Of a stretch of DNA of 17,382 bases, positions 1-17,382 are shown one piece after another. Position numbers and translations under genes: made by a program. Where the stretch lies: IMG/VR virus record IMGVR_UViG_3300029473_000215. One strand, 5' to 3'. This DNA comes from a virus (Duplodnaviria; Heunggongvirae; Uroviricota; Caudoviricetes). The notes below the pieces were generated by a model. The model was given only the letters and a program-made list of their open reading frames with translations. It was not told where the DNA came from and made no database searches. How positions within the stretch are numbered: the first letter of the stretch is position 1; each line of letters opens with the position of its first letter.

Positions 1-1338
1 ATGCGTCAGAGAGAGCTTGCAGCCACCGCTAAGGCCTTCATGTTGGATAGGCCTGAAGTCTCACTACAGGAGCTTACAGAGCATCTCCGGTCTATGGCTG
101 AGCAGTTCCTGACAGACGCTAGTGACGATTACTGGAATGGACTTGAGGTCGCTACTTTGGTCGACGAGAAGTCCAACCTGAGGGAGCTAGCCGCTACGCA
201 AGCATTGAGTCTGGACCAGCAGAAGGGCATAAGGTTAGCGCTTGAAGTCCTGACCGCAGCACAGCAGAGGGTAGACACTGGTGATACCTCTGGTCTGATT
301 GATATTGTGATGAATAACCCTACGGATTACTCAACTATAGGCGACTCTACGTCAATTCTGAAGAATGAGCAGGGGGGTAGACCAGCAGTTTTCACACAGG
401 AGCGCCAACCTGAGGTCGCTATCTGTAGTTTTTCTGAGCTTGTGTCCTCGCTGCTGGCTGAGAAGGTCCAGACCCTGAAGTCCTCCAGCTACAAGGACCT
501 GTCGTCCTCACTGAATACCGTCTCTCGGTTCTTACCTGAAAACATGGACCTGATGTCCCGCTCTGAGTGGCTGGCTGTCAGGGACTCCATGCTGGCTGCT
601 GAGGTGAGACCATCGACAATCAACAAGCTGCTGACTAAAGCGAAGATGTGTCTTGATTACGGTCTGATGAATGGACAGCTTGAGGGCCGCAACCCTATTG
701 AACGGATGAAGCTGACCAAGGATATCGACTCCAAGCGCAGGGCGTTCACAGACGAGGAGCTGGAGAGACTTCTGGTCCGTGTTGAGTCTGAGTATCAGTT
801 CACACGACACACGGCTCACACGACCTCTGAGGCCCGTAGATGGGCGTCTCTGGTGTCTGTGGTCACTGGCGCTCGGTCTGCTGAGGTCTGCCACCTGACT
901 AAACGTGACATTGTAACCTTGGACAATGGGCTGGTCTGTATCGACATCAATGAAGATGGGGACGGGAAGTCTGTGAAGAACAAACATTCAGTCCGACTTG
1001 TGCCGTTGACCGATGGGGCCTGTGGTCTTGACCTGAAGTCCTTCCTCGAATGGGTAGACATGCAGCCTGACGAGGGTCCTCTCTTCGGGATGACTCCAAG
1101 CGCATACTCTAGCTGGTTTAACTCAAGGGTCATGACTGAAGCTCTGGGAGACGCTACGGATGTCTCTCTCCACAGTCTGAGGCACTGGCTAGCGACCAGA
1201 ATGAAAGAGCGTGGAGTCAATCTGGTGGACGCTCAGGGCATCTTAGGTCACAGCAGTCAGTCCATTACGTATGACCTGTACGGGAAAGGACATGCAGTCC
1301 AGAGACTCGCAGATGCATTGGCTGTGACGTTTGGTTAA
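1..1338 (+). CDS. Tyrosine-type site-specific recombinase (phage integrase family), 445 aa
   Basis: C-terminal catalytic motifs visible in translation: TGARSAEV (box I Arg), HSLRHW (His-x-x-Arg), LGHSSQSITYDLYGKG (conserved His and catalytic Tyr). ATG sits at window position 1, so the true N-terminus could lie upstream. Confidence 0.7.
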   Translation: MRQRELAATAKAFMLDRPEVSLQELTEHLRSMAEQFLTDASDDYWNGLEVATLVDEKSNLRELAATQALSLDQQKGIRLALEVLTAAQQRVDTGDTSGLIDIVMNNPTDYSTIGDSTSILKNEQGGRPAVFTQERQPEVAICSFSELVSSLLAEKVQTLKSSSYKDLSSSLNTVSRFLPENMDLMSRSEWLAVRDSMLAAEVRPSTINKLLTKAKMCLDYGLMNGQLEGRNPIERMKLTKDIDSKRRAFTDEELERLLVRVESEYQFTRHTAHTTSEARRWASLVSVVTGARSAEVCHLTKRDIVTLDNGLVCIDINEDGDGKSVKNKHSVRLVPLTDGACGLDLKSFLEWVDMQPDEGPLFGMTPSAYSSWFNSRVMTEALGDATDVSLHSLRHWLATRMKERGVNLVDAQGILGHSSQSITYDLYGKGHAVQRLADALAVTFG

Positions 1339-1487
1339 GTGACTGAAAGTATTAGCAACCACACTAAACTATCACTGTAGGGACTTCATCCCGCCTCTGG
1401 TCCTATGCGTAGCGTCCATGCGGGAGCCACCCAACTTAACTTTCAGCATCACTCATCCACTTTCACCATTACACGGAGGTATCCATC

Positions 1488-2222
1488 ATGGGCCGACCAG
1501 CCAAGCCACTAGACCGAATCAAACTGTACGACCATTACACCTTTGACCCAACCATTCCTCAGCTACTCCGAGTCAAGACACCTTACGGCCAATCTAAACG
1601 CGCCACAGGAGAGCCTGTTAGCTTCTATGTGCATCAAAATGGCTATGCCTCTGTCTCTGTACTGGGTAAGCGCTATCGTCGCTCCAGAGTCATCTACAGC
1701 CTGTGTAAGGGTCACATCCCTGAGGGAATGTTCGTTGACCATATCGACGGTAACCGACTCAATGACCATCCTGACAACCTGCGCCTAGTTACACCACAGC
1801 AGAACCAGTGGAACAGAGACAACCTTGGAGGCAAACTTCAGAACTATTTGCCGAAAGGGATTGACTTTGTAAAAGCTGAGGGTCGCTACAGAGCGCGTAT
1901 TAAGATAGACGGCAAGGTCCGGGCGAGACTCTCTTATGAGGTCAGGGAGCTTATGGTCTGGCTACAGGAACAGCGTCAGAAGCTACACGGTGAATTCGCC
2001 TACGATGGGTGGACCGACTGGACAGAGGCAGACCAGAAGCGAGCTGACGAGCGCTACGAGGTGTCCAAGCCTGAAGGGTATAAACCAAGGAAGCGACGTT
2101 TACCCGGCTACGCTAAGACGCATGATGGACTGAAAGTCTACATTGAGCCTAAAACTGGGCGTCTCTACTTTAAGAAGCTGAACAAGAAGCACTACATCGA
2201 CGAAGAGTCTGTGGTGGTTTGA
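1488..2222 (+). CDS. HNH homing endonuclease with AP2-like DNA-binding domain, 244 aa
   Basis: HNH motif VDHIDGNRLNDHPDNLRLVTPQQNQWN; downstream AP2-like segment GIDFVKAEGRYRARIKIDGKVRARLSYE; GGAGG SD (1475-1479) 8 nt before the ATG. Confidence 0.75.
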   Translation: MGRPAKPLDRIKLYDHYTFDPTIPQLLRVKTPYGQSKRATGEPVSFYVHQNGYASVSVLGKRYRRSRVIYSLCKGHIPEGMFVDHIDGNRLNDHPDNLRLVTPQQNQWNRDNLGGKLQNYLPKGIDFVKAEGRYRARIKIDGKVRARLSYEVRELMVWLQEQRQKLHGEFAYDGWTDWTEADQKRADERYEVSKPEGYKPRKRRLPGYAKTHDGLKVYIEPKTGRLYFKKLNKKHYIDEESVVV

Positions 2223-2369
2223 TGACGGTTGCTAACTTAGAGCGCCTCTGTAGGCCTTGGTGCGTCTGGTCTGTAGAGGAGGGGGCTAAATTATCAGTAT
2301 AGGGAAAATGGCAGACACTACCGCCTCTCCTTCCAGCAATGGGGGGAGGGGGGGCAGACCATAGATGCT

Positions 2370-2418
2370 GACTTAAAGTTAAGACTCTAAGTAAGACTGA
2401 AGTTATGACTCTAAGTTA
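2370..2418. repeat. Four tandem 12-bp direct repeats (consensus aGACTctAAGTtA), followed by an AT-rich tract (2417-2450) and a degenerate fifth copy near 2461-2473
   Basis: Read directly: gacttaaagtta / agactctaagta / agactgaagtta / tgactctaagtt. A G6-A-G7 tract lies just upstream (2341-2354). Confidence 0.7.
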
Positions 2419-2504
2419 ATTATTATCTTCTTATGAAGATTAATATAAGACCTATAGTCCAGACTTAAGTCAGACCTCATTCCTTCTATGTGTCTTCCTC
2501 AACC

Positions 2505-2780
2505 ATGGGGTCGACGATAGCTCCGTCAGTCTCCAGCTCAAAGCATCGGGACCCTGTATACATTGGGTCGTTGCTTGGGCTTCCACCTGCTAAGGAGCCG
2601 GGTCAGTGGCGTAGCTCTCTAAAAGACAAGCTCGTTAAAGATGCAATTTTGCATGTTTTAGCAGGACGCTCCGGTGGTTCGACTCCGGGTCGGCATTCAG
2701 ATTGGCAAAGTAGAAGACACCGAGTCGACACAGTACAAGCGTTTTGCTCAGACCAAAGTTGGAAAGCTACTGAGGAATAG
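2505..2780 (+). pseudogene. Partial duplicate of the KilA-N gene 5' region (KilA-N N-terminal motif fragment); may be a remnant or a small paralog
   Basis: Translation ...PPAKEPGQWRSSLKDKLVKDAILHVLAGRSGGSTPG... matches ...PSAKEPGQWRSSVRTLLDQDANLHVAHGGSTPG... of the 3011-3769 protein. Shares an exact 26-nt block (ctgctaaggagccgggtcagtggcgt) and a 17-nt block (ggtggttcgactccggg); no similarity downstream. Confidence 0.3.
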
Positions 2781-3010
2781 GCAGAAAATCCGCCTTATCC
2801 TTAGGGTCGAAGGACTTAACGGGTCCAACTTTGGGCTGGATTTAAAAGAGGAAACTTTCCTTTATCAACTATGGTCTTCACACGACCTCATCATCAATCC
2901 TCAAGTCTTTCTGTATGTCTCCTGTTGCCTGTGAGTCTCCCTATCGTTGGGGGCTTGAGTAGGCTTTCAGGGTGTGACTTCAGGAGGCATAACAAAAGGA
3001 GTACAACGAT

Positions 3011-3769
3011 ATGTCAACTCAACCCTTAATGAAGCATGAAGTAGTTCTTCCGGTCATCGTTGACGGCTATCACTGGGCCTGTAATCAGGACCGTATGTGG
3101 AACCTGAACGAGCTACATAAAGAGCTTGAGCTTCCATCTGCTAAGGAGCCGGGTCAGTGGCGTTCTAGCGTCAGGACGCTTCTTGACCAAGATGCAAATT
3201 TGCATGTTGCTCATGGTGGTTCGACTCCGGGGACATGGGCTACTGAAGAGGCGGCTATTGCCTATGCGATGTGGGTCTCACCTGATTTCTACCTTAAGGT
3301 CATCCGTGCTTTCATCGCTTTACGTAACGACAAAGTGTCGGAAGCTAAGGCGCTGGCGCAGGACTCCAAGGAACTTAAGGGTCTCAAGCCTATAGCCCGT
3401 AACTGGCTGGAAAAGCTGGATAACCCGAAGCAGGGCCACACCCTGACAGAGTGTCTTAAGAATCTCGACTTCAGGTTAGGTACAAAGCTGGTATCAGCCA
3501 AGGCTCTTAATGCCGTATTGAAGTCAGGGCGTATAGCTAATCCCTTCTATAGTCGCAAGCTGGACGGTCGAGGACAGCCTGTATTTGACATCTCATCAGG
3601 TGGCTGGATGACCAGCTTCAATCCTAAGGGTCTGGAGAACGGCTATTACCGTCTTCAGGATAACCACTATAACGGTCAGGAGGGGCTTAAGGTCCTCACC
3701 AAGGGTTACGAGTGGCTTAAGTCCAACAAGGTCGAGCTGGTTCGTCTGTGCGCTAAGGGAGGACTCTAA
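3011..3769 (+). CDS. KilA-N domain protein, 252 aa
   Basis: KilA-N/APSES-like signature ...HGGSTPGTWATEEAAIAYAMWVSPDFYLKVIRAF; SD aaaaggag 10 nt upstream of the ATG. Confidence 0.7.
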   Translation: MSTQPLMKHEVVLPVIVDGYHWACNQDRMWNLNELHKELELPSAKEPGQWRSSVRTLLDQDANLHVAHGGSTPGTWATEEAAIAYAMWVSPDFYLKVIRAFIALRNDKVSEAKALAQDSKELKGLKPIARNWLEKLDNPKQGHTLTECLKNLDFRLGTKLVSAKALNAVLKSGRIANPFYSRKLDGRGQPVFDISSGGWMTSFNPKGLENGYYRLQDNHYNGQEGLKVLTKGYEWLKSNKVELVRLCAKGGL

Positions 3770-3770
3770 G

Positions 3771-3944
3771 ATGATTGACCCGCGCACACCTGAGGGCCGC
3801 ATGACTCTCCGTTACCGTGGCTATCGGACTGAAGTCCTCCTCAGAGAGCTTGGTCTAGACCCGGAAGATGAGACCCGCCAGCACCAATCCCGAGACGAGC
3901 TAATAGCCCAACTGGTCGCTATGAAACTGTCGCTAGCAAGCTAG
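3771..3944 (+). CDS. Small hypothetical protein, 57 aa (below the ORF-track length cutoff)
   Basis: ATG one nucleotide after the KilA-N stop (TAAgATG); GGAGG at 3758-3762, 8 nt upstream; uninterrupted frame to TAG at 3942-3944; translation MIDPRTPEGRMTLRYRGYRTEVLLRELGLDPEDETRQHQSRDELIAQLVAMKLSLAS. Confidence 0.45.
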   Translation: MIDPRTPEGRMTLRYRGYRTEVLLRELGLDPEDETRQHQSRDELIAQLVAMKLSLAS

Positions 3945-4081
3945 CTGTCTCCTAACCGTTAGTAGCTCACCTACTCAATACCTGATTTTAAAACCTTTTG
4001 AGATGACCGATGCGGGGAGACCCGTAGGCATAACTGTGTCTGCGATACCGATAGTCTCAACTCTCAATAGGAGTACACCTT

Positions 4082-4573
4082 ATGTTATTCAACAACAACG
4101 ACTGGAAACTGTCAGTCACCGACATCAATCTCTACGAGAATACTGTGAGTCTGGACGGTCAGTCCTATCCGTTGTCGCTCGCTATCAAGACCCTCATTCC
4201 GGGCTACCTGTCCGGCCTGCCAGCCACCAGCCGTGAGTCTATGGAGCTACTGGAAGCTCTGGCTGAAGCTGGCGTGACCATTGGTAACTTCTTCAGTAAT
4301 GACCTGATGACCGCCTACCAACGCCGCCAGATGAATAAGCGTGTCGAGGCTGAGCGTATCGCTAAAGAGCTGGCGTCTCAGAAAGAGCGTACCCGCGAAA
4401 TGTTCATGACCGAAGACGAATGGCAGAAAGAGTTACAACGCCGCGAACAGGTCAAAGCTGAACGCCGGACCTATGGTGAGAACCTCCGCAGCGCTACCCA
4501 TTCCGCTGGTCGTTCCCGTGCCGCTATTGTCGCTGACCTTGAGTCAGGCGGTAACTGGCTGGACAGCCTGTAA
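4082..4573 (+). CDS. Hypothetical protein, 163 aa, with charged, probably helical C-terminal half (scaffold-like is a guess)
   Basis: AGGAG SD upstream of the ATG; C-terminal region rich in E/R/K/Q heptad-like runs (RRQMNKRVEAERIAKELASQKERTREMF...QKELQRREQVKAERR). No family recognised. Confidence 0.6.
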   Translation: MLFNNNDWKLSVTDINLYENTVSLDGQSYPLSLAIKTLIPGYLSGLPATSRESMELLEALAEAGVTIGNFFSNDLMTAYQRRQMNKRVEAERIAKELASQKERTREMFMTEDEWQKELQRREQVKAERRTYGENLRSATHSAGRSRAAIVADLESGGNWLDSL

Positions 4574-4641
4574 GACTCACAAGTGGTCCTGACCTGATGT
4601 CGGGACCCACGTATCTAAACTAATTTAGGAGATTGATTATT

Positions 4642-5628
4642 ATGACTATGACTAAAGACAGCTATCAGTTCGGCATTGAGCCAGTACGTATCACCGACAC
4701 CGACAACATTCAGGTCAATGAAGGTCTGCCGACTAACGCTGACCCACAGGTCTATGCCCTCCAGTTAGCTAAGACGGTTAAGGCTATGCTGAACGGTGTA
4801 CTTAAAGACGCTCAGGATAACATTCCGTTCCCTGTAGAAGTCCTGCCTACCCGCAATAGCCTGCCTACCCCAATCATCGCCCACACTCTGTCTGACCGCT
4901 CTGTGGTCGTCCCTGTACGCGGTGGTGAGCGACCTGAAGTCGTGACCGCTCCGTCTGGTCAGGAGATTGTGGTAGAGCCTATTGAGCAAGCTATCCTTGT
5001 GTCTCACCAGACCAAGCTATGGGACGTCAAGTCTTCCACTGGTTTCACTCAGGGTACGCTCCAGCAGGACGCTATGAACATCTGTGAGAATGTGGTCCGT
5101 ACCATCAACGCTCGCATGGTTGACGTTCTGGAGTCCTCCAAGCTGCTGAAGACTGTAGAGCTGCCAGTCCTGACTGGAAGCCTGACCACTAAGGCAGACG
5201 CTATCATGGACGCTCTGTACGAGAACACCGAGCCTTCCTTTGGTTCTGAGGTTACTGATTACGGTATCATCGCCCATGAGTCACACCTCAAGGCTCTCTC
5301 CCGTCTGGCTGCTAAGCAGGGCTTCGGTGGTGAAGACGCTATCGTGGATATGCTGGGTACCGACATCGCGTATTACAACGGTGAGGACAAAGGTGTGTTC
5401 ATGCTGGCTAAACGCTTCACGGCCCTGAGCTTCGGCTGCTTCCGTCACGACGGTGAGAATATTACGGTCGTCCTTTCACGTGATGGCGACTCTCAGTCCC
5501 ATGACCTTGAGATTCTCGGTAAAGTGTTCGTTGTCGCTGAAGCTGCTACGACCATCAAGATGGGCACTGGCTCAGCTACTGCCGTCCTGCCTGTAGTCAA
5601 ACGCCTGAGTTTCACTAAGACAAGCTAA
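4642..5628 (+). CDS. Hypothetical protein, 328 aa (possibly structural; unrecognised)
   Basis: Long ORF with AGGAG at 4627-4631, 10 nt before ATG 4642 (the ORF track starts at an upstream TTG, 4633); followed by a strong intrinsic terminator. No motif recognised. Confidence 0.65.
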   Translation: MTMTKDSYQFGIEPVRITDTDNIQVNEGLPTNADPQVYALQLAKTVKAMLNGVLKDAQDNIPFPVEVLPTRNSLPTPIIAHTLSDRSVVVPVRGGERPEVVTAPSGQEIVVEPIEQAILVSHQTKLWDVKSSTGFTQGTLQQDAMNICENVVRTINARMVDVLESSKLLKTVELPVLTGSLTTKADAIMDALYENTEPSFGSEVTDYGIIAHESHLKALSRLAAKQGFGGEDAIVDMLGTDIAYYNGEDKGVFMLAKRFTALSFGCFRHDGENITVVLSRDGDSQSHDLEILGKVFVVAEAATTIKMGTGSATAVLPVVKRLSFTKTS

Positions 5629-5647
5629 CTAACAATAACGACTTATT

Positions 5648-5686
5648 GGTCAGACTTCCGTAACTGGATGTCTGGCCTTTATTTTG
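5648..5686 (+). terminator. Rho-independent terminator after the 328-aa gene
   Basis: GGTCAGAC (5648-5655) pairs with GTCTGGCC (5670-5677) with one G-U pair, inner TCC/GGA pairs, followed by TTTATTTTG. Confidence 0.5.
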
Positions 5687-5728
5687 TACTAGTAATCTAG
5701 TTCATGGGTGCGGAAAGAGGAGGACCTA

Positions 5729-5839
5729 ATGGACCTACACAAAGTCTATCTCGTAGTCTTCCTGCTAAAGCTAGCTCTGGTAGTCGTGCTGATGGTCTGG
5801 CCTAAAGTACGATGGTTTCTGACAGAAAAATGTGAATGA
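5729..5839 (+). CDS. Small hydrophobic peptide, 36 aa, predicted single transmembrane helix (below ORF-track cutoff)
   Basis: GAGGAGGA SD (5717-5724) 5 nt before ATG 5729; translation MDLHKVYLVVFLLKLALVVVLMVWPKVRWFLTEKCE; stop TGA at 5837-5839. Confidence 0.4.
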   Translation: MDLHKVYLVVFLLKLALVVVLMVWPKVRWFLTEKCE

Positions 5840-5940
5840 CCATCTAATACATTGAGCCAGCAGACTTCCCCCCATAGTCCCGCCTCAAGTCCTGACCGAG
5901 GCCACCGGGGGGCCTGACCAGCCGTCTAGACATCCCGTCT

Positions 5941-5974
5941 AATGACACAAGTCTGGCACAAAGAATGACACAAG
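5941..5974. repeat. Two exact 11-bp direct repeats (aatgacacaag) at 5941-5951 and 5964-5974, 57-90 bp from the island/chromosome junction
   Basis: Read directly from sequence. Confidence 0.6.
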
Positions 5975-5982
5975 GTCTTGAC

Positions 5983-7440
5983 TCAATGCAGGACCTCAGG
6001 CCTACTAAGGGTCCGCTTCAAGTCCTTGAAGTTCCAGATGAACTTAATGGGCACATCCAGTTTATCTTTGCCCCGGACGCCGTCGCGGATTGCCGTCATT
6101 TTGGGGCCATGATCGATAGCATCTGTCCAGCTGAAGCAGGAAATTGACGTTTTGACCGGATTATCCAGCACCGGCAGGCGCTCTATGGTAATGGTATAGG
6201 TCGATTCACGCGCGCCACTATTTCCGCCGCTGATGCCGACATTGCCCGTCAGAATAGGCAACATAGCAATAGCGCGTGCGGTCAGCTCGCCGTTTGCCTG
6301 GCGTTGTGGCCCCCAGCCCTGGCAGGTATAAGCGGGTTTTGCTGTGCCAATTTCACGCGCCAGTTTGATGATACGGTCCACCGGGATACCGGTAATTTGC
6401 GAAGCCCACTGCGGCGTTTTCGCTGTTTTATCGTCACCTTCACCAAGAATATAGGCTTTATAGTGACCATTTTTGGGTGCATCTGCGGGTAAGGTTTTTT
6501 CGTCATAGCCGACGCAGTATTTATCGAGAAAAGGTTGATCAACGAGATTTTCGTTAATCAATACCCAGGCAATACCCGCAACCAGCGCGGCATCGGTGCC
6601 CGGGCGAATAGGAAGCCATTCATCTTCACGACCAGCAGCCGTATCGGTATATCGCGGATCGATAACAATCATTTTGGCGTTCGATTTCTCGCGCGCTTTT
6701 TCAAGAAGATAAGTGATGCCACCGCCGCTCATGCGGGTTTCTGCCGGGTTGTTACCAAACATCACGACCAGCTTGCTGTTTTCAATATCCGTGGTGCTGT
6801 TGCCATCATTACTGCCGTAGGTGTAGGGCATGGCACAGGAAATTTGCGCAGTGCTGTAGGAGCCATACTGGTTGAGTGAACCGCCGTAGCAGTTCATCAG
6901 GCGTTTGACCGCCGAGGCTGATGGCGAAGAGCGGGTCATATTGCCGCCAACAATCCCCGAAGAGTACTGAATATATACAGCCTCATTGCCATATTGTTCG
7001 ACGGTTTTTTTCAGACTACTGGCGATAGTATCCAGGGCTTCATCCCAGCTAATCCGTTCGAATTTGCCTTCACCGCGTTTACCCACGCGTTTCATTGGGT
7101 AATTCAAGCGATCGGGATGATTAATACGCCGGCGGATGGAGCGACCGCGCAAACAGGCGCGTACTTGATGATTGCCATACTCGTCGTTGCCGGTGTTGTC
7201 AGTTTCCACCCAGATCACTTCATTATCTTTAACATGTAGACGAAGTGCACAGCGGCTACCACAGTTGACGGAACAGGCACCCCAGACCACTTTCTCGCTG
7301 GCCTGTTGTACCGCTGCCGCTGCACTGCGTAGGGTGAACGGTAAAGAAAAACCGCCTGCAGCCAGCGCCAGAGAACCTATCGCGGTAGATTTAACGAGTG
7401 TTCTGCGGCTGATGCCCACCATTCGTTCATTTTTGGACAT
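5983..7440 (-). pseudogene. ynfE: 3'-truncated ynfE (DmsA-family molybdopterin oxidoreductase, Tat-secreted): about 470 native codons plus a 15-codon foreign tail
   Basis: N-terminus MSKNERMVGISRRTLVKSTAIGSLALAAG (twin-arginine signal) and body match E. coli YnfE/DmsA from memory. Homology ends after ...DVPIKFIWN (codon at 6033-6031), then FKDLKRTLSRPEVLH-stop from island DNA. Full-length protein is about 800 aa. Confidence 0.85.
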
Positions 7441-7539
7441 AACTCACTCCCTGTTCTTTATCGTTATATAAATGTTTATATATTGAATATTTAGCGCGCT
7501 AACAATAGAGGGAGTCTACCCATTTTGGGTTAAGAATTA

Positions 7540-7553
7540 TTAATCCACATCAA
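7540..7553. promoter_or_regulatory. Putative FNR-box (TTAAT-N4-ATCAA) upstream of ynfE
   Basis: ttaatccacatcaa matches 9 of 10 positions of the FNR consensus TTGAT-N4-ATCAA, about 100 bp upstream of the ynfE start; ynfEFGH is known to be anaerobically induced. Confidence 0.35.
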
Positions 7554-7600
7554 TAGAAGGGTATGAGTAATATGGTGGGATTATGTTGTATGTTCAAATC

Positions 7601-7621
7601 GCCGGATGTGTCATATCCGGC
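7601..7621 (-). terminator. Perfect 7-bp stem hairpin between ynfD and ynfE (possible weak terminator or attenuator for ynfD)
   Basis: gccggat-gtgtcat-atccggc; on the minus strand it is followed by only GATTTG, so the U-tract is weak. Confidence 0.3.
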
Positions 7622-7638
7622 GTTCAGTCGATAATGTG

Positions 7639-7947
7639 TTACTGCGGTTCGGCAGGCGCGCCATCCTGGCTAGACTGCGCGGGAGCAGAGACGTTACCGC
7701 TGGTGGTGCGGGTATAGAGAATTTTATGCGTATCATTAGCGCAATGGCCGACGACCTGGGAATCAGGCTGATCAACCTGGTCATTGGGTACAATACTTAA
7801 CGTGAAGCTGCTTTCGGGTACGCCATTATTGATAATGCGCTGTGATATATCGCTCTGTATGCGCTCACAGGATCCCGGCGCGGCGAGTACCGCGGGTGAG
7901 GCGAGGGCGAGCAGAAGCGCGGCACAGCAGGTTGAGAGTTTCATCAT
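7639..7947 (-). CDS. ynfD: YnfD, DUF1161-family secreted protein
   Basis: Translation MMKLSTCCAALLLALASPAVLA... (signal peptide) matches E. coli YnfD from memory; GGAG SD upstream of ATG 7947/7944; the ORF-track start at 7986 is an upstream extension. Confidence 0.85.
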   Translation of the reverse strand: MMKLSTCCAALLLALASPAVLAAPGSCERIQSDISQRIINNGVPESSFTLSIVPNDQVDQPDSQVVGHCANDTHKILYTRTTSGNVSAPAQSSQDGAPAEPQ

Positions 7948-8051
7948 AAGCTCCTTACGCGAAGATAACTTCTTTAAGCATAGCATTTAACGTGTAAAGT
8001 ACTGTATTTGCTACTATGATTGAGAATCATCTCTACTCTCTGGTGACTGTT

Positions 8052-12801: not shown

Positions 12802-14082
12802 TTAATTTTTCATTGCTTCGTTATGGGGCATGGTTGGGGCAAACTCGCTTAACTGTGTATTTAACAAAGCTACCTGTGCATTATTGTTTTCAGACATCCA
12901 TTTTCCGTATACCTGAAATACCATTTGCGCATCTGCATGGCCCATCTGGTTTGCTATAAATGCCGGGTTAGCACCAGCTGTCAGCGACCAGCAGGCATAA
13001 GTATGTCTCGACTGATATGATTTTCGATGGCGGAGTCCGGCACGTTTTATCGCTGCGTCCCACATCTGCCTTATTGAGTCAACGGTAAAATGGTCACCAT
13101 AATTTTTTACTCCCGCTGACACTTCAGGTTGAAAAACAAAGGTGCATTTTTGTTTTTCTGTTCTGCCATACTCTCTGAGGTGAACATCAATGATATGCTC
13201 TTTGCTCAGTCTCGTTAATGTCATCTGACTCCGGAGAGCGTCGATTGCTGGCTTAATAAGATGAATGACCCGATTGGTTCCCGCCTGTGTTTTTGGTACC
13301 GTGAAACGGTCTTTTGCTAAATTTCTCCTGATCATCATTGTTCCATTTTTCAGATCTATGTCCTCCCATCCAAGTGCACACAGCTCACCAGGGCGAACGC
13401 CAGTATAAACAGAAACACACCATAAATTTTTTGCTTGCTGATTTCTGCACGCATCGATAAGACGGATAAATTCCTCCCGCGAAAGAGGATCCGGAATGGT
13501 TCTTGATTCCTTTAATGGCGAGATCCCCTTAAACGGATTATCTGGCAGGTAACCGTTATCAACACCAAACTGGAACACGGCGTTAAGATTTGTCATGTAA
13601 TTATTTACAGTTACAGCCGATCTTCCTGGTTGTGTAACAATATAGTTACTTTTGGGGATCTGGTATCCAGTCAGTAGCTCTTTACGAACCTCCAGTAATT
13701 TTTCTTTATTAATCGATGAGGCAAGATTTTTTTCACCGATTATGCTCAGGATATTTTTGATGACGGCACGGTATGTGTTGAGTGATGTTTTGGCGACTTC
13801 AGTTTCTTTCAGTGCCAGAAATTTTTCAGCCAGTTCTTTTATGGTTAAATCTTGTCGGGCCTCACCAAATTTTTCCAGATTGCGTGAGGAGGGAAACTGT
13901 TTTGCATAGTCGAAAACACCAGTTTTTATTGCGTAACAAACAGAGGAGCGTAGTTCACCTGCAACGCGCCTGTTTTTTGCTGTGTCAGGAACCCCCAGAT
14001 TTTCCCTGACTCTTACGCCTTTATAGACAAACCAGATACGTAATTTCCCTCCATGGTTTTCCACGCCTGTCGGATATTTCAT
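12802..14082 (-). CDS. Lambdoid phage integrase (tyrosine recombinase with N-terminal arm-binding domain), about 426 aa
   Basis: N-terminus MKYPTGVENHGGKLRIWFVYKGVRVRE resembles Rac IntR-type arm-binding domains; C-terminus carries RHRKSYQSRHTYAC...GHADAQMVFQVYGKW. Start chosen at 14082; an alternative ATG is at 14097. Confidence 0.9.
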   Translation of the reverse strand: MKYPTGVENHGGKLRIWFVYKGVRVRENLGVPDTAKNRRVAGELRSSVCYAIKTGVFDYAKQFPSSRNLEKFGEARQDLTIKELAEKFLALKETEVAKTSLNTYRAVIKNILSIIGEKNLASSINKEKLLEVRKELLTGYQIPKSNYIVTQPGRSAVTVNNYMTNLNAVFQFGVDNGYLPDNPFKGISPLKESRTIPDPLSREEFIRLIDACRNQQAKNLWCVSVYTGVRPGELCALGWEDIDLKNGTMMIRRNLAKDRFTVPKTQAGTNRVIHLIKPAIDALRSQMTLTRLSKEHIIDVHLREYGRTEKQKCTFVFQPEVSAGVKNYGDHFTVDSIRQMWDAAIKRAGLRHRKSYQSRHTYACWSLTAGANPAFIANQMGHADAQMVFQVYGKWMSENNNAQVALLNTQLSEFAPTMPHNEAMKN

Positions 14083-14116
14083 TTCAACTTCTCTCATTAG
14101 TTAGTGTGGCTTTTAG

Positions 14117-14368
14117 TCAAGTAAGATGACGTCTTGGTCTCGCTGATGCCTGGCGCTCAATCCAGCGATCAATTTCTTCCAGGTTGTAAAAGCATGGACT
14201 GTTATCCCATGGCATACCGTCATGAGCGACATGCTTATATTCCCTTCCTTCCATAAACGATTTTTCCCGGGCCTTTTTTAGCGTACCTTTTTTTATTCCT
14301 TTCAGCGCAATTAACTGCTCTTCGGATACCCATTTGCCGGGAGAGACAATCATGATTACTTCGCTCAT
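14117..14368 (-). CDS. Excisionase-like protein, 83 aa
   Basis: Small basic protein immediately upstream of int on the same strand; sequence ...GKWVSEEQLIALKGIKKGTLKKAREKSFMEGREYKHV... resembles the lambdoid prophage excisionase-like family from memory. Confidence 0.65.
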   Translation of the reverse strand: MSEVIMIVSPGKWVSEEQLIALKGIKKGTLKKAREKSFMEGREYKHVAHDGMPWDNSPCFYNLEEIDRWIERQASARPRRHLT

Positions 14369-14397
14369 CGATTTCTTTATCTCTTACATCAGACGAG

Positions 14398-14429
14398 CGC
14401 CGGTTGCAGAATACCAGTCACAACCGGCG
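14398..14429. other. 9-bp perfect inverted repeat with 14-nt spacer between the exo and xis genes
   Basis: cgccggttg (14398-14406) and caaccggcg (14421-14429); no adjacent U-tract on either strand. Confidence 0.3.
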
Positions 14430-14440
14430 ACAGTTGAACA

Positions 14441-16912
14441 TTAAGAATCAGCCTGACTCGGGATCAGTTTTTGCCAGATAACTGAAACGTATTTTGCCTG
14501 GTAACGGGCGTCGTCAAGTGCATTATGGCGCTCACCTTCGAATGGAATAGCCGTTCTGGCATCGAAGTCTATGGCTTTCCCCAGCTCAACGATTGTGCGT
14601 ACATCGCGATCGTTGTAGTAACGCCACGGGCAGGGGATCCCCTGCCGTTCGTATGAACGGCGCAAAATCGTGTTGTCGAAGTTGGCTCCATTTCCCCAAA
14701 CCTGAACAAAAAATTCACCGGAGTTTTCGTCGATAAATTCCCGCAATTGTAACAGTGCATCATCTAACGGGATTTCATCGGTCATAATGGCAGATTGCGC
14801 TTCGCGTGATTGCTTAAGCCACCATTTAATGGTGTCCCGATCAATGACTCCGCCAGCAGTTTCCAGATCGATAGTCTTACTAAATTCCGGTCCCATATCT
14901 CCGGTTTGCGGATCGAAAAATATTGCACCTATTGAGATGATCGGGGCATCAGGATTTTTTCCCATGGTTTCAAGGTCGATCATTAGATGGTCACACGTCC
15001 TGCTGGTGGATGTGATTTCGTGATGACCGTTCACCTTAATTGGGTGATCTGCCGTCTCGCCAGTTTCATTATCGCTATTGTGATGCTGATTGCCGCCAGT
15101 GTTCTCCTTGTGTGGATGTTCAGCGCCTTCCATTTCCTCCGGATCATCTTCCTGAACTTCAACCTGATACTCTTCATCGAATGTTTCTTGGTATGTTGCG
15201 TCGCCCATCACCGCGCCACAATCAGGGCAGTTGCCGCCGCCGGTCTGACCGCAGGCGGTGCAGACTTTTTCCACTTCCTGTTGCGCCACTGGTTCAGGCT
15301 GTTTCGTTTCTGGCTCGTTTTGTAACGCATTTGGACTGTTTTGTTCCGCTTTTTGGTAGTTCCGTTCCGATTCATGCTGGTTCTGGTTCACAGAATCGCG
15401 GGTCTGGATCCCCTTAACCCATTTCGGATCATTCGGGTCACTAATCCCTTCAACAAATTCACCACGTGATGCAGCAAGCAACTTATCGGCGTCAGGCTGG
15501 CTGATATTGGCTGCCTGCATAATTTTGTTTACTTCGTCAGCGGTAACTTTTATCGGCTCTGGTTGTTCTGAATCTTCAGCGGTATCTACATTTTGCGGTA
15601 AGCCCGTGTATGTGCCATTTTTTCGGGCAAAATATTCTTCTTTTGTGATTTCAGTGGCGCCAGCAGCCAGTGCCTTATCCAGACCAGAAAGTTTGTTTGC
15701 GCGACCGTATTTTTCTCCGTCCTTATCTGCGAAGAGGAAATAGAACGGCCCCTCACGCTCTACAGATGGTTCAGCTTCCGGCGCGGTTTCATTTTTTGGG
15801 ATATCAGATACCTCAGTTTCCACTGTATCAGTTTGTGTTTCTGATGACTGGAGAACATCAACAGTGCCCAGGTCTGTTTCTTCATTCTCAAACACGCCCT
15901 TTGTCGTCAGGTATTCGCAGATATATTTGTTCAGTGCTACGGGATCTTTGTGAATGTCGATCGGACGCTCACGGACAAGGCCAAAAATAGTTTGGCGGTC
16001 GTAGCGAAGGGCATCAGGCTGTTTGCGCATTGATGCCGAGATACGCTTCCAGTCTTCGCGGTCGTTGTCGATAACTTCTTTTTTTGCCCAGCGATGGATG
16101 CTGCCGTCAATGTTTCCGGCATCCACATCACCAGGCCAGAGAGCGTAGGCCAGTTCGTCATCCAGTGTTTTCCATGTCTGCTTGTATTCGCGATGAATGG
16201 CAGCAATGACCGGGCTGATTTTTCCTGTTGAATTTTCAGTGTACTGTTGATTGGCTCTGGCGCGGGCGAGATCAACAACAGACGTGTATTTTCCGGTTTC
16301 CTTGCGTTCACCTTCGCGACGTTTTTTCCAGATGCGCATCTCTGCCTGAATTTCGGGCCATTTAGCACCAGGAATACATTTATGCTTAACCCACCCAATG
16401 GCGTGCAACTTAAGCTCCGGATACATGGCGTTAACTTCTGGCATTTTCATCAACGCTTCAACGATATGTCCGTCGAATGTTGCCATGTCTTCCTGCAACA
16501 ATTCCTGTGCGCTAATAACCATATCAACGGTGATGTTTTCACATGTGTCGAACTTAACCATGACAGCGTTCTGTACTTCAGGGGCCAGCTTGTCAAAAGT
16601 GACGTTCATCGGATCGGATTCAGTCTCAACCGGGACAAAAGAAGCAGACTCCTCATCCCAGCGGTTTTCCTGCATATATTCAGCATCCCATGAATCGAGG
16701 GCAGGGCGGGGTATGCCAGGTTTATCCTCGCAGACAATAAATTTATAAGCGCAGTCCTGAGCAGCCGGATAATGTTCCAGGAATTGCCAGTGAAATTTTG
16801 CTCGAGCACGGCGTTCGTCGCCAGCTTCAATGGCTGTGGCTACAGCCACAGCGCCTTCTTCCCTTGTTGCCAGTTCGTCAGGAATAGCGGCGCAAATAAA
16901 GACTTTACTCAT
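14441..16912 (-). CDS. Exodeoxyribonuclease VIII-like protein with C-terminal DnaQ-like (DEDDh) 3'-5' exonuclease domain, 823 aa
   Basis: Central segment KLLAASRGEFVEGISDPNDPKWVKGIQTRD and Cys4 cluster CTACGQTGGGNCPDCGAVMGDATYQETF match RecE from memory; C-terminus has DEDDh motifs MIDLETMG, WGNGANFDNTIL and HNALDDARYQ instead of the RecE PD-(D/E)xK nuclease; GAGG SD upstream of the ATG. Confidence 0.85.
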   Translation of the reverse strand: MSKVFICAAIPDELATREEGAVAVATAIEAGDERRARAKFHWQFLEHYPAAQDCAYKFIVCEDKPGIPRPALDSWDAEYMQENRWDEESASFVPVETESDPMNVTFDKLAPEVQNAVMVKFDTCENITVDMVISAQELLQEDMATFDGHIVEALMKMPEVNAMYPELKLHAIGWVKHKCIPGAKWPEIQAEMRIWKKRREGERKETGKYTSVVDLARARANQQYTENSTGKISPVIAAIHREYKQTWKTLDDELAYALWPGDVDAGNIDGSIHRWAKKEVIDNDREDWKRISASMRKQPDALRYDRQTIFGLVRERPIDIHKDPVALNKYICEYLTTKGVFENEETDLGTVDVLQSSETQTDTVETEVSDIPKNETAPEAEPSVEREGPFYFLFADKDGEKYGRANKLSGLDKALAAGATEITKEEYFARKNGTYTGLPQNVDTAEDSEQPEPIKVTADEVNKIMQAANISQPDADKLLAASRGEFVEGISDPNDPKWVKGIQTRDSVNQNQHESERNYQKAEQNSPNALQNEPETKQPEPVAQQEVEKVCTACGQTGGGNCPDCGAVMGDATYQETFDEEYQVEVQEDDPEEMEGAEHPHKENTGGNQHHNSDNETGETADHPIKVNGHHEITSTSRTCDHLMIDLETMGKNPDAPIISIGAIFFDPQTGDMGPEFSKTIDLETAGGVIDRDTIKWWLKQSREAQSAIMTDEIPLDDALLQLREFIDENSGEFFVQVWGNGANFDNTILRRSYERQGIPCPWRYYNDRDVRTIVELGKAIDFDARTAIPFEGERHNALDDARYQAKYVSVIWQKLIPSQADS

Positions 16913-17005
16913 TTTGTTTTAACCTCATGACAGATTTAAGGATGAACAAATCCCTGCCATTGCTGGCATATAAGAATGAAACCGGATATTTATTACGGAA
17001 CTGTT

Positions 17006-17197
17006 TTAAAGACCTGCCGGGATTTCGATATTATCCTGGTGAATAACTTTATCGACCGGGTAACAGTTACCGGGAATTTTCTGTTCGGTTGCTGCAGTCA
17101 TACACTCCTGCATTGTCCTGTGAACACTGACTGCAATATCAACTGGCACTCCGGAAACAAGAAAAACTGTCAGAACAAGCGCAAATGCTGAATTCAT
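17006..17197 (-). CDS. Small hypothetical protein with N-terminal hydrophobic segment, 63 aa
   Basis: AAGGA SD 8 nt before ATG 17197; translation MNSAFALVLTVFLVSGVPVDIAVSVHRT...; start overlaps the stop of the upstream gene (ATGA). The ORF track begins at an upstream ATG, 17251. Confidence 0.5.
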   Translation of the reverse strand: MNSAFALVLTVFLVSGVPVDIAVSVHRTMQECMTAATEQKIPGNCYPVDKVIHQDNIEIPAGL

Positions 17198-17382
17198 TGT
17201 GCACATCCTTTTGGCATCAGACGTAAACGAGCCAGCATTGAAACAATGCATATTTTATTTAATAGCTCCCGTTCTTGTTTTCTCTTGTTAATGGCATCTT
17301 CAGTAAATACAGGGTTACTGATAGTGACACCAATTTCAAAACAACCTTCAGACGTATTAACGTTTGGTAATAACGTTTTCAT
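17194..17382 (-). CDS. Small hypothetical protein, at least 62 aa; start coincides with the window edge so it may be 5'-partial
   Basis: Open frame on the minus strand ending with a TGA that overlaps the next ATG (translational coupling); no family recognised. Confidence 0.4.
   Translation of the reverse strand: MKTLLPNVNTSEGCFEIGVTISNPVFTEDAINKRKQERELLNKICIVSMLARLRLMPKGCAQ

Follow-up and report, generated by a model that had tools for sequence, protein, structure and literature searches.

A YdfE-type prophage protein of Escherichia coli that joins a RecE-like scaffold to a DEDDh exonuclease domain, with no annealase gene found nearby

The lambdoid prophage end in a 17,382-nucleotide (nt) stretch of DNA, catalogued as virus record IMGVR_UViG_3300029473_000215 and here called the window at its full length, carries a complete gene for a YdfE-type protein of 823 amino acids (aa). 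The product joins a scaffold with a RecE-like centre to a C-terminal DEDDh exonuclease domain, which stands where RecE carries its PD-(D/E)xK nuclease. On balance, we consider that it is probably a 3'-5' DNA exonuclease of the prophage early-left operon, working without an annealase of its own. The protein family is catalogued already, as PHROG 2082, as the new Pfam entries YdfE_N and YdfE_C and under RefSeq names; we class it as a variant within the RecE-type prophage exonucleases, and the modular picture and the prevalence figures are what is added here. Thousands of genomes list it under the name 'exonuclease' or '3'-5' exoribonuclease domain-containing protein', and literature searches of the available library on ydfE, Qin, Rv2179c-like proteins with prophage, and RecE-like lambdoid exonucleases returned no paper on the protein, the single RecE/lambdoid match, a Gifsy-1 paper, having no bearing on it. 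This agrees with a preliminary description of the window, made from its letters alone, which had called the family widely annotated but poorly defined in role.

The C-terminal domain matched Pfam PF16473 (Rv2179c-like) over aa 642-813 with an E-value of 2.4e-67 and a score of 226.5 bits (cutoff 27), and the alignment spans model positions 2-177 of 177. The DEDDh motifs were MIDLE (644-648), NGANFD (741-746) and HNALDD (796-801), and the catalytic set D646/E648/D746/H796/D801 aligned to D7/E9/D119/H186/D191 of T4 DexA, as well as to the catalytic residues of stand-alone coliphage homologues. All five residues are conserved in every full-length fused representative, 6 in number, at 40-62% identity. 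When a profile of the subfamily was searched against PDB, T4 DexA (8KEL, E 2e-19) was the sole match, and Rv2179c was not retrieved at E<=0.01; phmmer comparison of T4 DexA with the 823-aa protein gave E 1.5e-6. No match was obtained between aa 628-823 and the RecE nuclease (600-866), either by BLASTP or by phmmer. DnaQ-like motifs in place of the RecE PD-(D/E)xK domain had been noticed from the letters, and the Pfam and PDB profile matches, with the lack of any RecE-nuclease match, confirmed a domain of DEDDh/DexA type and not one that aligns to the RecE nuclease fold. Members of the DEDD superfamily have 3'-5' polarity. By analogy with that superfamily and with DexA, we infer the same polarity for this domain.

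The region preceding this domain is clearly related to RecE. BLASTP aligned aa 262-627 with RecE 278-592 at 39% identity (E 9e-62), and the match rises to nearly 80% from about aa 473 onward, taking in a DKLLAASRGEFV.GISDPNDPKWVKGIQTRD block, the CxxC-x7-CxxC cluster and the acidic tail. Gene nt 1425-1867, within the C4 module, showed 78% DNA identity to recE. The NCBIfam equivalog model of RecE (NF007259) was matched in part, aa 246-623 aligning to model positions 271-600 of 877 with 283.4 bits against a cutoff of 1269. The swap junction between the RecE-like region and the DEDDh domain lies at about aa 627. Thus, the RecE-like central region with a Cys4 cluster and acidic linkers, as first described, was upheld by BLASTP, DNA identity and the partial equivalog match. 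The wider claim of a RecE-like protein did not hold for the first ~256 aa, which form the YdfE_N module and are not RecE-like: Exonuc_VIII (PF06630) of the RecE N-terminus had no Pfam match in the 823-aa protein, and phmmer with RecE 1-277 matched other members of the scaffold family but not this protein.

The modules of the protein are listed in the table below. PF27430 and PF27432 were assigned from the precomputed Pfam annotation of a 93-94% identical protein (P0001), which lists PF27430, PF16473 and PF27432. The AlphaFold2 model of the scaffold has three confident domains, aa 1-205, 245-340 and 388-432, joined by disordered acidic linkers, with a predicted local distance difference test (pLDDT) score of about 90 for aa 1-205, about 88 for M2 and about 85 for the strands and helices of 390-431, the flanks of which fall below 50. 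The small domain of L3 corresponds to nearly invariant columns in our alignment (A3). Comparison of the scaffold with solved structures gave no informative fold match. The Cys4 cluster is kept in representatives P0128 and P0139 and is missing in P0122, P0141 and P0242. A short motif, G-x-G-x-F-[SVD]-[IV]-x-[GNA]-[LI], spotted by eye and in the alignment consensus, precedes the effector in all scaffold classes; here it reads RGEFVEGIS (aa 483-491, ~15440-15466), and RecE shares RGEFVEGI, whereas the Rad52-like class has GNGRFSIEGL and the fourth class GDGVFSVENL (both classes described below). It could be a conserved interaction or oligomerisation element.

The window is a piece of E. coli chromosome with a disrupted ynfE/F, ynfD, ynfC, speG, ynfB, ynfA, rspA and rspB, followed by the left end of the lambdoid prophage, and the insertion beside rspB is the site of the cryptic prophage Qin in K-12. 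The K-12 pseudogene ydfE, broken by IS2E, is 100% identical to aa 1-256 of the 823-aa protein, up to the IS2E insertion. Because of this identity, the gene is, as judged by sequence, the intact form (orthologue) of ydfE. RefSeq WP_063625447.1, annotated 'exonuclease', is the identical coding sequence, and PHROG 2082 ('exonuclease') matches the protein over its full length. The minus-strand gene order is dicB, ydfD, exonuclease, xis and int, the dicB start codon being the last triplet of the window, and the exonuclease gene is the last before xis-int in a dicB-type early-left operon, which also makes the DicF small RNA (sRNA). The gene had been said to follow xis directly; the two are indeed adjacent, with a 72-bp gap, but the order is the reverse, as the exonuclease gene precedes xis in the direction of transcription. 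By synteny, the slot from xis to kil/dicB holds this exonuclease here, exo-bet-gam in lambda, erf-abc in P22 and recET in Rac. The isolated Escherichia phage HannyBb (45 kb) carries the same int-xis-exo-ydfD-dicB block. In strain WEC (NZ_CP114592) the locus is identical, and the 12 kb upstream hold ydfD, dicB, a ydfB fragment, ydfA, two repressors, YdaT, replication genes, an AAA ATPase, hokD and rem.

We looked for an annealing partner by tblastn (E<=1e-4) with a panel of RecT, Bet, Erf, the Rad52-like tail, lambda Exo, Gam, Abc2 and the RecE nuclease, in flanks of up to 10 kb or to the contig end. The fused gene was represented by seven loci (L001, L003, L009-L013), taken from E. coli, HannyBb (entered as a whole genome), E. 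ruysiae, E. albertii (two loci), S. flexneri and one mis-binned metagenome-assembled genome (MAG). No annealase was detected by this panel in any of the seven. Annotation of the 12 kb upstream of the identical gene in strain WEC shows no recT, bet or erf. No annealase is annotated in the complete HannyBb genome and none was found there by tblastn with RecT, Rad52-type proteins not being separately screened in that genome; Pfam and PHROG scans of its unassigned early genes gave no annealase family. The annotation of two further E. coli prophages (L042, L043), whose integrases differ and of which one comes from O157:H7, likewise shows no annealase. The preliminary description had reported no recT or bet partner nearby, and this stands by annotation, tblastn and Pfam/PHROG scans of the fused-gene loci; nor does a recT-like gene lie beyond the window in the identical NZ_CP114592 locus or in HannyBb. 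In contrast to the fused loci, a recT plus RecE-nuclease probe gave a contiguous match in 1728 genomes. Among loci with a stand-alone DEDDh gene, 3 of 25 have an Erf homologue 0.5-1 kb upstream (L020:2043-2279, L022:9240-9443, L024:2071-2385); therefore, some phages do pair this nuclease family with an annealase.

As compared to RecE (exonuclease VIII of Rac in K-12), the protein occupies the same slot between xis and a cell-division-inhibitor gene, shares the M2 (YdfE_C-like) region and a very close Zn-ribbon/acidic region, and is likewise large with its nuclease at the extreme C-terminus. RecE, however, is a PD-(D/E)xK 5'-3' exonuclease of double-stranded DNA whose gene overlaps recT, whereas here the nuclease is of DEDDh type (by analogy 3'-5') with no recT; and the N-terminus of RecE is Pfam Exonuc_VIII, whereas the first 256 aa here are a different module, YdfE_N. 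To see this swap in context, we mapped the scaffold family. An HMMER search with aa 1-630 against 1.84 billion representative proteins gave 246 matches, and because the matches are so few the family is narrow (enterobacterial). Mapping by phmmer showed two alternative N-terminal modules, YdfE_N or the RecE N-terminus (Pfam Exonuc_VIII), common middle modules M2, L3 and C4, and interchangeable C-terminal effectors, and all four combinations of N-terminus and nuclease were found. By these sequence comparisons, the RecE-to-DEDDh swap is part of a wider combinatorial modularity and not a single event.

Four classes of C-terminus were seen on the scaffold: the RecE PD-(D/E)xK nuclease, the DEDDh exonuclease, a predicted Rad52-fold domain and an unassigned fourth tail. 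The Rad52-like class, a larger one with 18 representatives, spans Salmonella, Enterobacter, Klebsiella, Kosakonia, Pantoea, Serratia, Erwinia and E. albertii; as a rule its proteins go by the annotation 'exodeoxyribonuclease VIII'. Its members share the N1-M2-L3 scaffold (30-49% identity) and lie upstream of a DUF1233 xis and int, but differ from the 823-aa protein in that the C-terminal ~290 aa hold no nuclease domain and matched nothing in Pfam or in a PDB profile search (best E 0.3 in the latter), with a predicted fold of the RAD52 N-terminal domain. The AlphaFold2 model of this tail (pLDDT 85) gave the human RAD52 N-terminal domain as its top 8 Foldseek hits, with E about 1e-6 and probability 1.00 over about 183 columns; examples are P0135 (aa ~451-741) and L008:8465-9328, with the motif KKSLTDAxKKALSxLGFSADVWLGLYD. 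Going by the model, the class probably consists of annealases mis-annotated as exonucleases. Hundreds of proteins of Salmonella, Enterobacter and Klebsiella that are named 'exodeoxyribonuclease VIII' have no recognised nuclease domain and, in its stead, a predicted Rad52-like fold. In one Salmonella prophage, a Rad52-like scaffold protein lies upstream of the same type of xis-int pair, with four small open reading frames (ORFs) between. The fourth class, a small one (P0126 aa 444-702, P0261, P0266), has a C-terminus of ~250 aa unlike the other three effector types; the P0126 tail had no Pfam match and falls in PHROG 26058, of unknown function. In one 703-aa protein (P0200), the RecE N-terminus and C4 run directly into the C-terminal half of RecT (aa 528-703, ...LLPFGNKNEKSGKKNVQLIIGYRGMIDLARRSG...), probably through a deletion that fused recE and recT or through an artefact of assembly.

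DNA of the DEDDh domain (at least 80% coverage) was present in 4048 of 5426 complete E. coli genomes (75%), occupying 8098 places in all, with a maximum of 7 in one genome; 1728 of the 5426 (32%) had the recE-nuclease plus recT unit. Recombineering is built on RecET and Red, the model phage recombinases, yet the commonest 'RecE-like' protein of E. coli prophages has a nuclease that by analogy acts with the opposite polarity, and it has no annealase. Beyond Escherichia and Shigella, only Kluyvera and one Enterobacteriaceae genome yielded the fused form, there in a shorter C4-plus-DEDDh version. Stand-alone DEDDh proteins occur in the prophages of many Enterobacterales and of Vibrio, and 1287 phage records also hold them, T4-like dexA genes among these. 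Those of the prophages and of other temperate coliphages (PhiR55_1 and PhiR46_1), called 'exodeoxyribonuclease VIII', are 41-61% identical to the domain, keep the catalytic residues and are likewise early genes of temperate phages, but they have only 180-200 aa, lack the YdfE/RecE scaffold and in a few cases stand beside an Erf gene. Against the E. albertii allele, dN/dS (the ratio of nonsynonymous to synonymous substitution rates) was 0.24 overall, 0.11 for N1 and 0.11 for M2, showing purifying selection on the scaffold. Frameshifted copies were seen in S. flexneri (L013) and at one E. albertii locus (L011).

Three of the homologues deserve a remark of their own. A stand-alone protein of the Klebsiella P2-like phage ST16-OXA48phi5.4 (L007:4286-4852), annotated '3'-5' exoribonuclease', has DLI, K and a gap where the catalytic Glu, the second Asp and the His would stand, and by its sequence is probably inactive. 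Two loci from MAGs labelled Veillonella parvula (L012) and Actinomycetes (L020) are enterobacterial prophage DNA with 100% and 58% identity to the DEDDh domain, respectively; mis-binning is the most likely cause of these phylum labels.

We propose that the exonuclease gene would be co-transcribed with dicB and ydfD once the DicA/CI-type repressor is lifted; this follows from knowledge of the K-12 operon and from a simple consensus scan, which found no sigma-70-like promoter beyond chance on the gene strand upstream of the exonuclease. The product would be a Mg2+-dependent 3'-5' exonuclease acting on DNA 3' ends and not on RNA. DNA is favoured because the profile retrieves only T4 DexA, and because the scaffold is otherwise coupled to DNA-recombination effectors. 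The RecE-type scaffold would direct the nuclease to a site or partner shared with the sister proteins, which would bring the RecE nuclease or the Rad52-like annealase there. The protein would then be a single-component enzyme that trims or degrades 3' ends in the slot for recombination and DNA-end processing, and not a 5'-3' resecting exonuclease paired with an annealase. Since the polarity known for the DEDD superfamily is opposite and the partner is missing, it is unlikely to be a resection enzyme of the Red/RecET type. The N-terminal region of RecE, though its function is unknown, improves linear-linear recombination (PMC11611040), which by analogy suggests that the scaffold may target or organise DNA-end processing.

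Several points weigh against this proposal. The 3'-5' exonuclease activity is assigned to the protein by reading its sequence. It is not obvious how the protein would promote recombination, since the 3' tails required for it are what a 3'-5' exonuclease destroys. Annealases that are very divergent or of a new type could escape the tblastn panel. As the Pfam family is named for an exoribonuclease, the substrate may be RNA. The DEDDh domain has only 5 substitutions relative to the E. albertii allele, the sole diverged allele compared, and selection on the domain itself is therefore not gauged by dN/dS. Delivery to a common partner is a conjecture, because the scaffold fold gave no informative structural match. 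Finally, a stand-alone DexA homologue of E. coli has been reported in defence and not in phage DNA metabolism (PMC12153337).

That report introduces the main rival, in which the protein would be a prophage anti-phage defence of the 'HREX' type, degrading the modified (5-hydroxymethylcytosine, 5hmC, type) DNA of superinfecting T-even phages and so protecting the lysogen. The stand-alone homologue, EcD, spares unmodified double-stranded DNA, degrades T4 DNA and protects against T4, and in this defence form D90 of DexA is replaced, by Ala78 in EcD (Kang et al. 2025, PMC12153337). EcD is the only E. coli homologue with experimental data and belongs to the same DexA-like DEDDh family, but it has about 189 aa and no scaffold. 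Through a primer sequence given in PMC12153337 we recovered, from IMG/VR viral contigs, an EcD-like protein of 189 aa with Ala at position 78, which is 38% identical to our C-terminal domain. The high prevalence in E. coli would also fit a benefit to the host. DicB, from the neighbouring operon gene, gives phage resistance, which may likewise be counted in favour of defence.

Comparison with T4 DexA (exonuclease A; 8KEL/8KEN) does not support this alternative. DexA is the closest solved relative, a phage-encoded 3'-5' DNA exonuclease whose five DEDDh residues align with ours, but it is free-standing, has 227 aa and extra loops, comes from a virulent phage and is 24-28% identical. The DexA residues to which 5hmC recognition is assigned in that paper do not appear to be kept, W152 aligning to Y766 (also aromatic) and D169 to A780 here, although this stretch is gapped and poorly aligned. 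D90 is a tetramer contact in DexA, and the defence form is marked by its loss, Ala standing there in EcD, but the present protein keeps the Asp as D718; S87 of DexA corresponds to P715. Moreover, no promoter of its own was found for the gene, which lies in a repressed early operon, the isolated phage HannyBb carries it at the recombination-module position, and PADLOC returned only a generic Cas-associated DEDDh model (E 1.7e-5). A defence function would also leave the 630-aa RecE-type scaffold unexplained. On this evidence we regard defence as unlikely. Prophages have 0 mentions in the HREX paper (PMC12153337), though relatives of the DEDDh domain sit in phage and prophage early regions.

Alternatively, the protein could be half of a two-component recombinase, its annealase being supplied in trans (e.g. 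by a co-resident Rac-type RecT), hidden in the protein or encoded by a small neighbouring ORF. The C4 region before the effector is about 80% identical to that of RecE, sister proteins fuse the same scaffold directly to a predicted Rad52-like annealase, recET is available in 1728/5426 genomes, and an Erf homologue lies upstream in 3/25 stand-alone DEDDh loci. However, a 3'-5' nuclease would leave 5' overhangs and not the 3' tails onto which annealases load, and neither the fused-gene loci nor HannyBb yielded an annealase. The partner specificity of RecE also probably resides with its nuclease domain, and such a half-recombinase appears improbable to us. Slightly less probable again is a 3'-5' exoribonuclease in the manner of M. 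tuberculosis Rv2179c, with RNAs of the phage or the host as its targets, for instance transcripts of the early operon or small RNAs. That protein gives its name to PF16473 and shares the DEDDh fold, the best Pfam model and many RefSeq entries carry the name 'Rv2179c-like 3'-5' exoribonuclease' or a similar one, and the operon makes the DicF sRNA. On the other side, Rv2179c is a bacterial exoribonuclease of housekeeping type, the subfamily profile finds among solved structures only the DNA exonuclease DexA and not Rv2179c, and the effectors otherwise coupled to the scaffold are those of DNA recombination. A decaying, functionless recE remnant of cryptic prophages is disfavoured and very improbable, for although the K-12 copy is an IS2-cut pseudogene and L013 and L011 are frameshifted, the ORF here is intact and full-length, the catalytic residues are conserved across representatives at 40-62% identity, dN/dS is 0.24, and the domain occurs in 4048 genomes at >=80% coverage and in an isolated phage.

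Returning to a prophage DNA exonuclease that works without its own annealase, a broader and tentative idea, which we hold to be possible but rather doubtful, is that the YdfE/RecE scaffold is a delivery platform of enterobacterial temperate phages, bringing interchangeable DNA-end effectors, whether a 5'-3' exonuclease, a 3'-5' exonuclease or a Rad52-type annealase, to one common target. If so, the DEDDh version, with more than twice the prevalence of recET in E. coli, would define an annealase-independent phage pathway, and its candidate roles would be removal of 3' tails, redirecting or blocking host recombination and SOS signalling, or degradation of the DNA of competitors or of defence systems. 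Knowledge of the activity would clarify the purpose of the enigmatic 600-aa N-terminal region of RecE and would show whether the gene has a part in prophage induction, host genome stability or phage exclusion. The exonuclease might also add new parts for DNA engineering.

The 72-bp spacer between the exonuclease gene and xis (14369-14440) and its 9-bp inverted repeat, both noted at the outset, are present as described. The arms are CGCCGGTTG (14398-14406) and CAACCGGCG (14421-14429), and the RNA fold has -19.7 kcal/mol (z -1.8). No T-run follows the repeat, no terminator was called before xis, and the repeat does not have the form of a canonical terminator. It is shared unchanged by 6 fetched loci, among them each checked locus in which the exonuclease gene is followed by a DUF1233-type xis, and is missing in L042, which has a different xis downstream, as well as in L010, the E. 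albertii allele. The repeat may be part of the xis-int module and not of the exonuclease gene, serving perhaps in RNA processing or stability. No Rfam family was found in the window.

Table. Coordinates of features in the window (position 1 is its first letter)
Feature	Position	Strand	Basis or remark
YdfE-type exonuclease gene, 823 aa, complete	14441..16912	-	ORF and translation; ATG start
Shine-Dalgarno GAGG, 10 nt 5' of exonuclease ATG	16923..16926	-	read from sequence
Module N1 (YdfE_N), aa 1-235	16208..16912	-	PF27430, precomputed on P0001; unrelated to RecE N-terminus
Module M2 (helical YdfE_C), aa 236-345	15878..16207	-	PF27432; shared with RecE about aa 278-340
Module L3, aa 346-470	15503..15877	-	acidic disordered linkers flanking a small conserved domain
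Small conserved domain of L3, aa 385-432	15617-15760	-	motif ER.GPFY...GRANKL...EI..EEY.ARKNG
Module C4, aa 471-634	15011..15502	-	most RecE-like region (RecE about 455-592); Cys4 and acidic tail
Cys4 cluster C551/C554/C562/C565 in C4	15218-15262	-	CTACG...CPDCG
DEDDh exonuclease domain, aa 635-823, and stop codon	14441..15010	-	Pfam PF16473
Perfect 9-nt inverted repeat, 14-nt loop, in exo-xis spacer	14398..14429	-	repeat search
Excisionase xis (DUF1233), next gene downstream of exonuclease	14117..14368	-	Pfam PF06806, E 1.6e-31
Tyrosine integrase, prophage end beside rspB	12802..14097	-	Pfam Arm-DNA-bind_2 and Phage_integrase; L001 annotation
ydfD (DUF1482 lysis protein), directly upstream of exonuclease	17006..17197	-	Pfam PF07358; K-12 synteny
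dicB (cell-division inhibitor), upstream, same operon	17194..17382	-	Pfam PF05358, E 1.9e-40
Island integrase, cut by window start	1-1338	+	
Island HNH_3 endonuclease	1488-2222	+	
Island KilA-N protein	3011-3769	+	
Two island proteins without Pfam or PADLOC match	4082-4573, 4633-5628	+	
Truncated molybdopterin subunit, 485 aa, after island	5983-7440	-	

Two observations lie outside the exonuclease gene. K-12 exoD (DLP12) had been suspected to be a fragment of this exonuclease family, but tblastn showed no similarity and the candidate was rejected. At the other end of the window (1-7440), an integrative island of ~6 kb disrupts the ynfE/ynfF selenate-reductase locus; the island is rare, with 15 of 5426 complete E. 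coli genomes covering at least 80% of window positions 1-8000.

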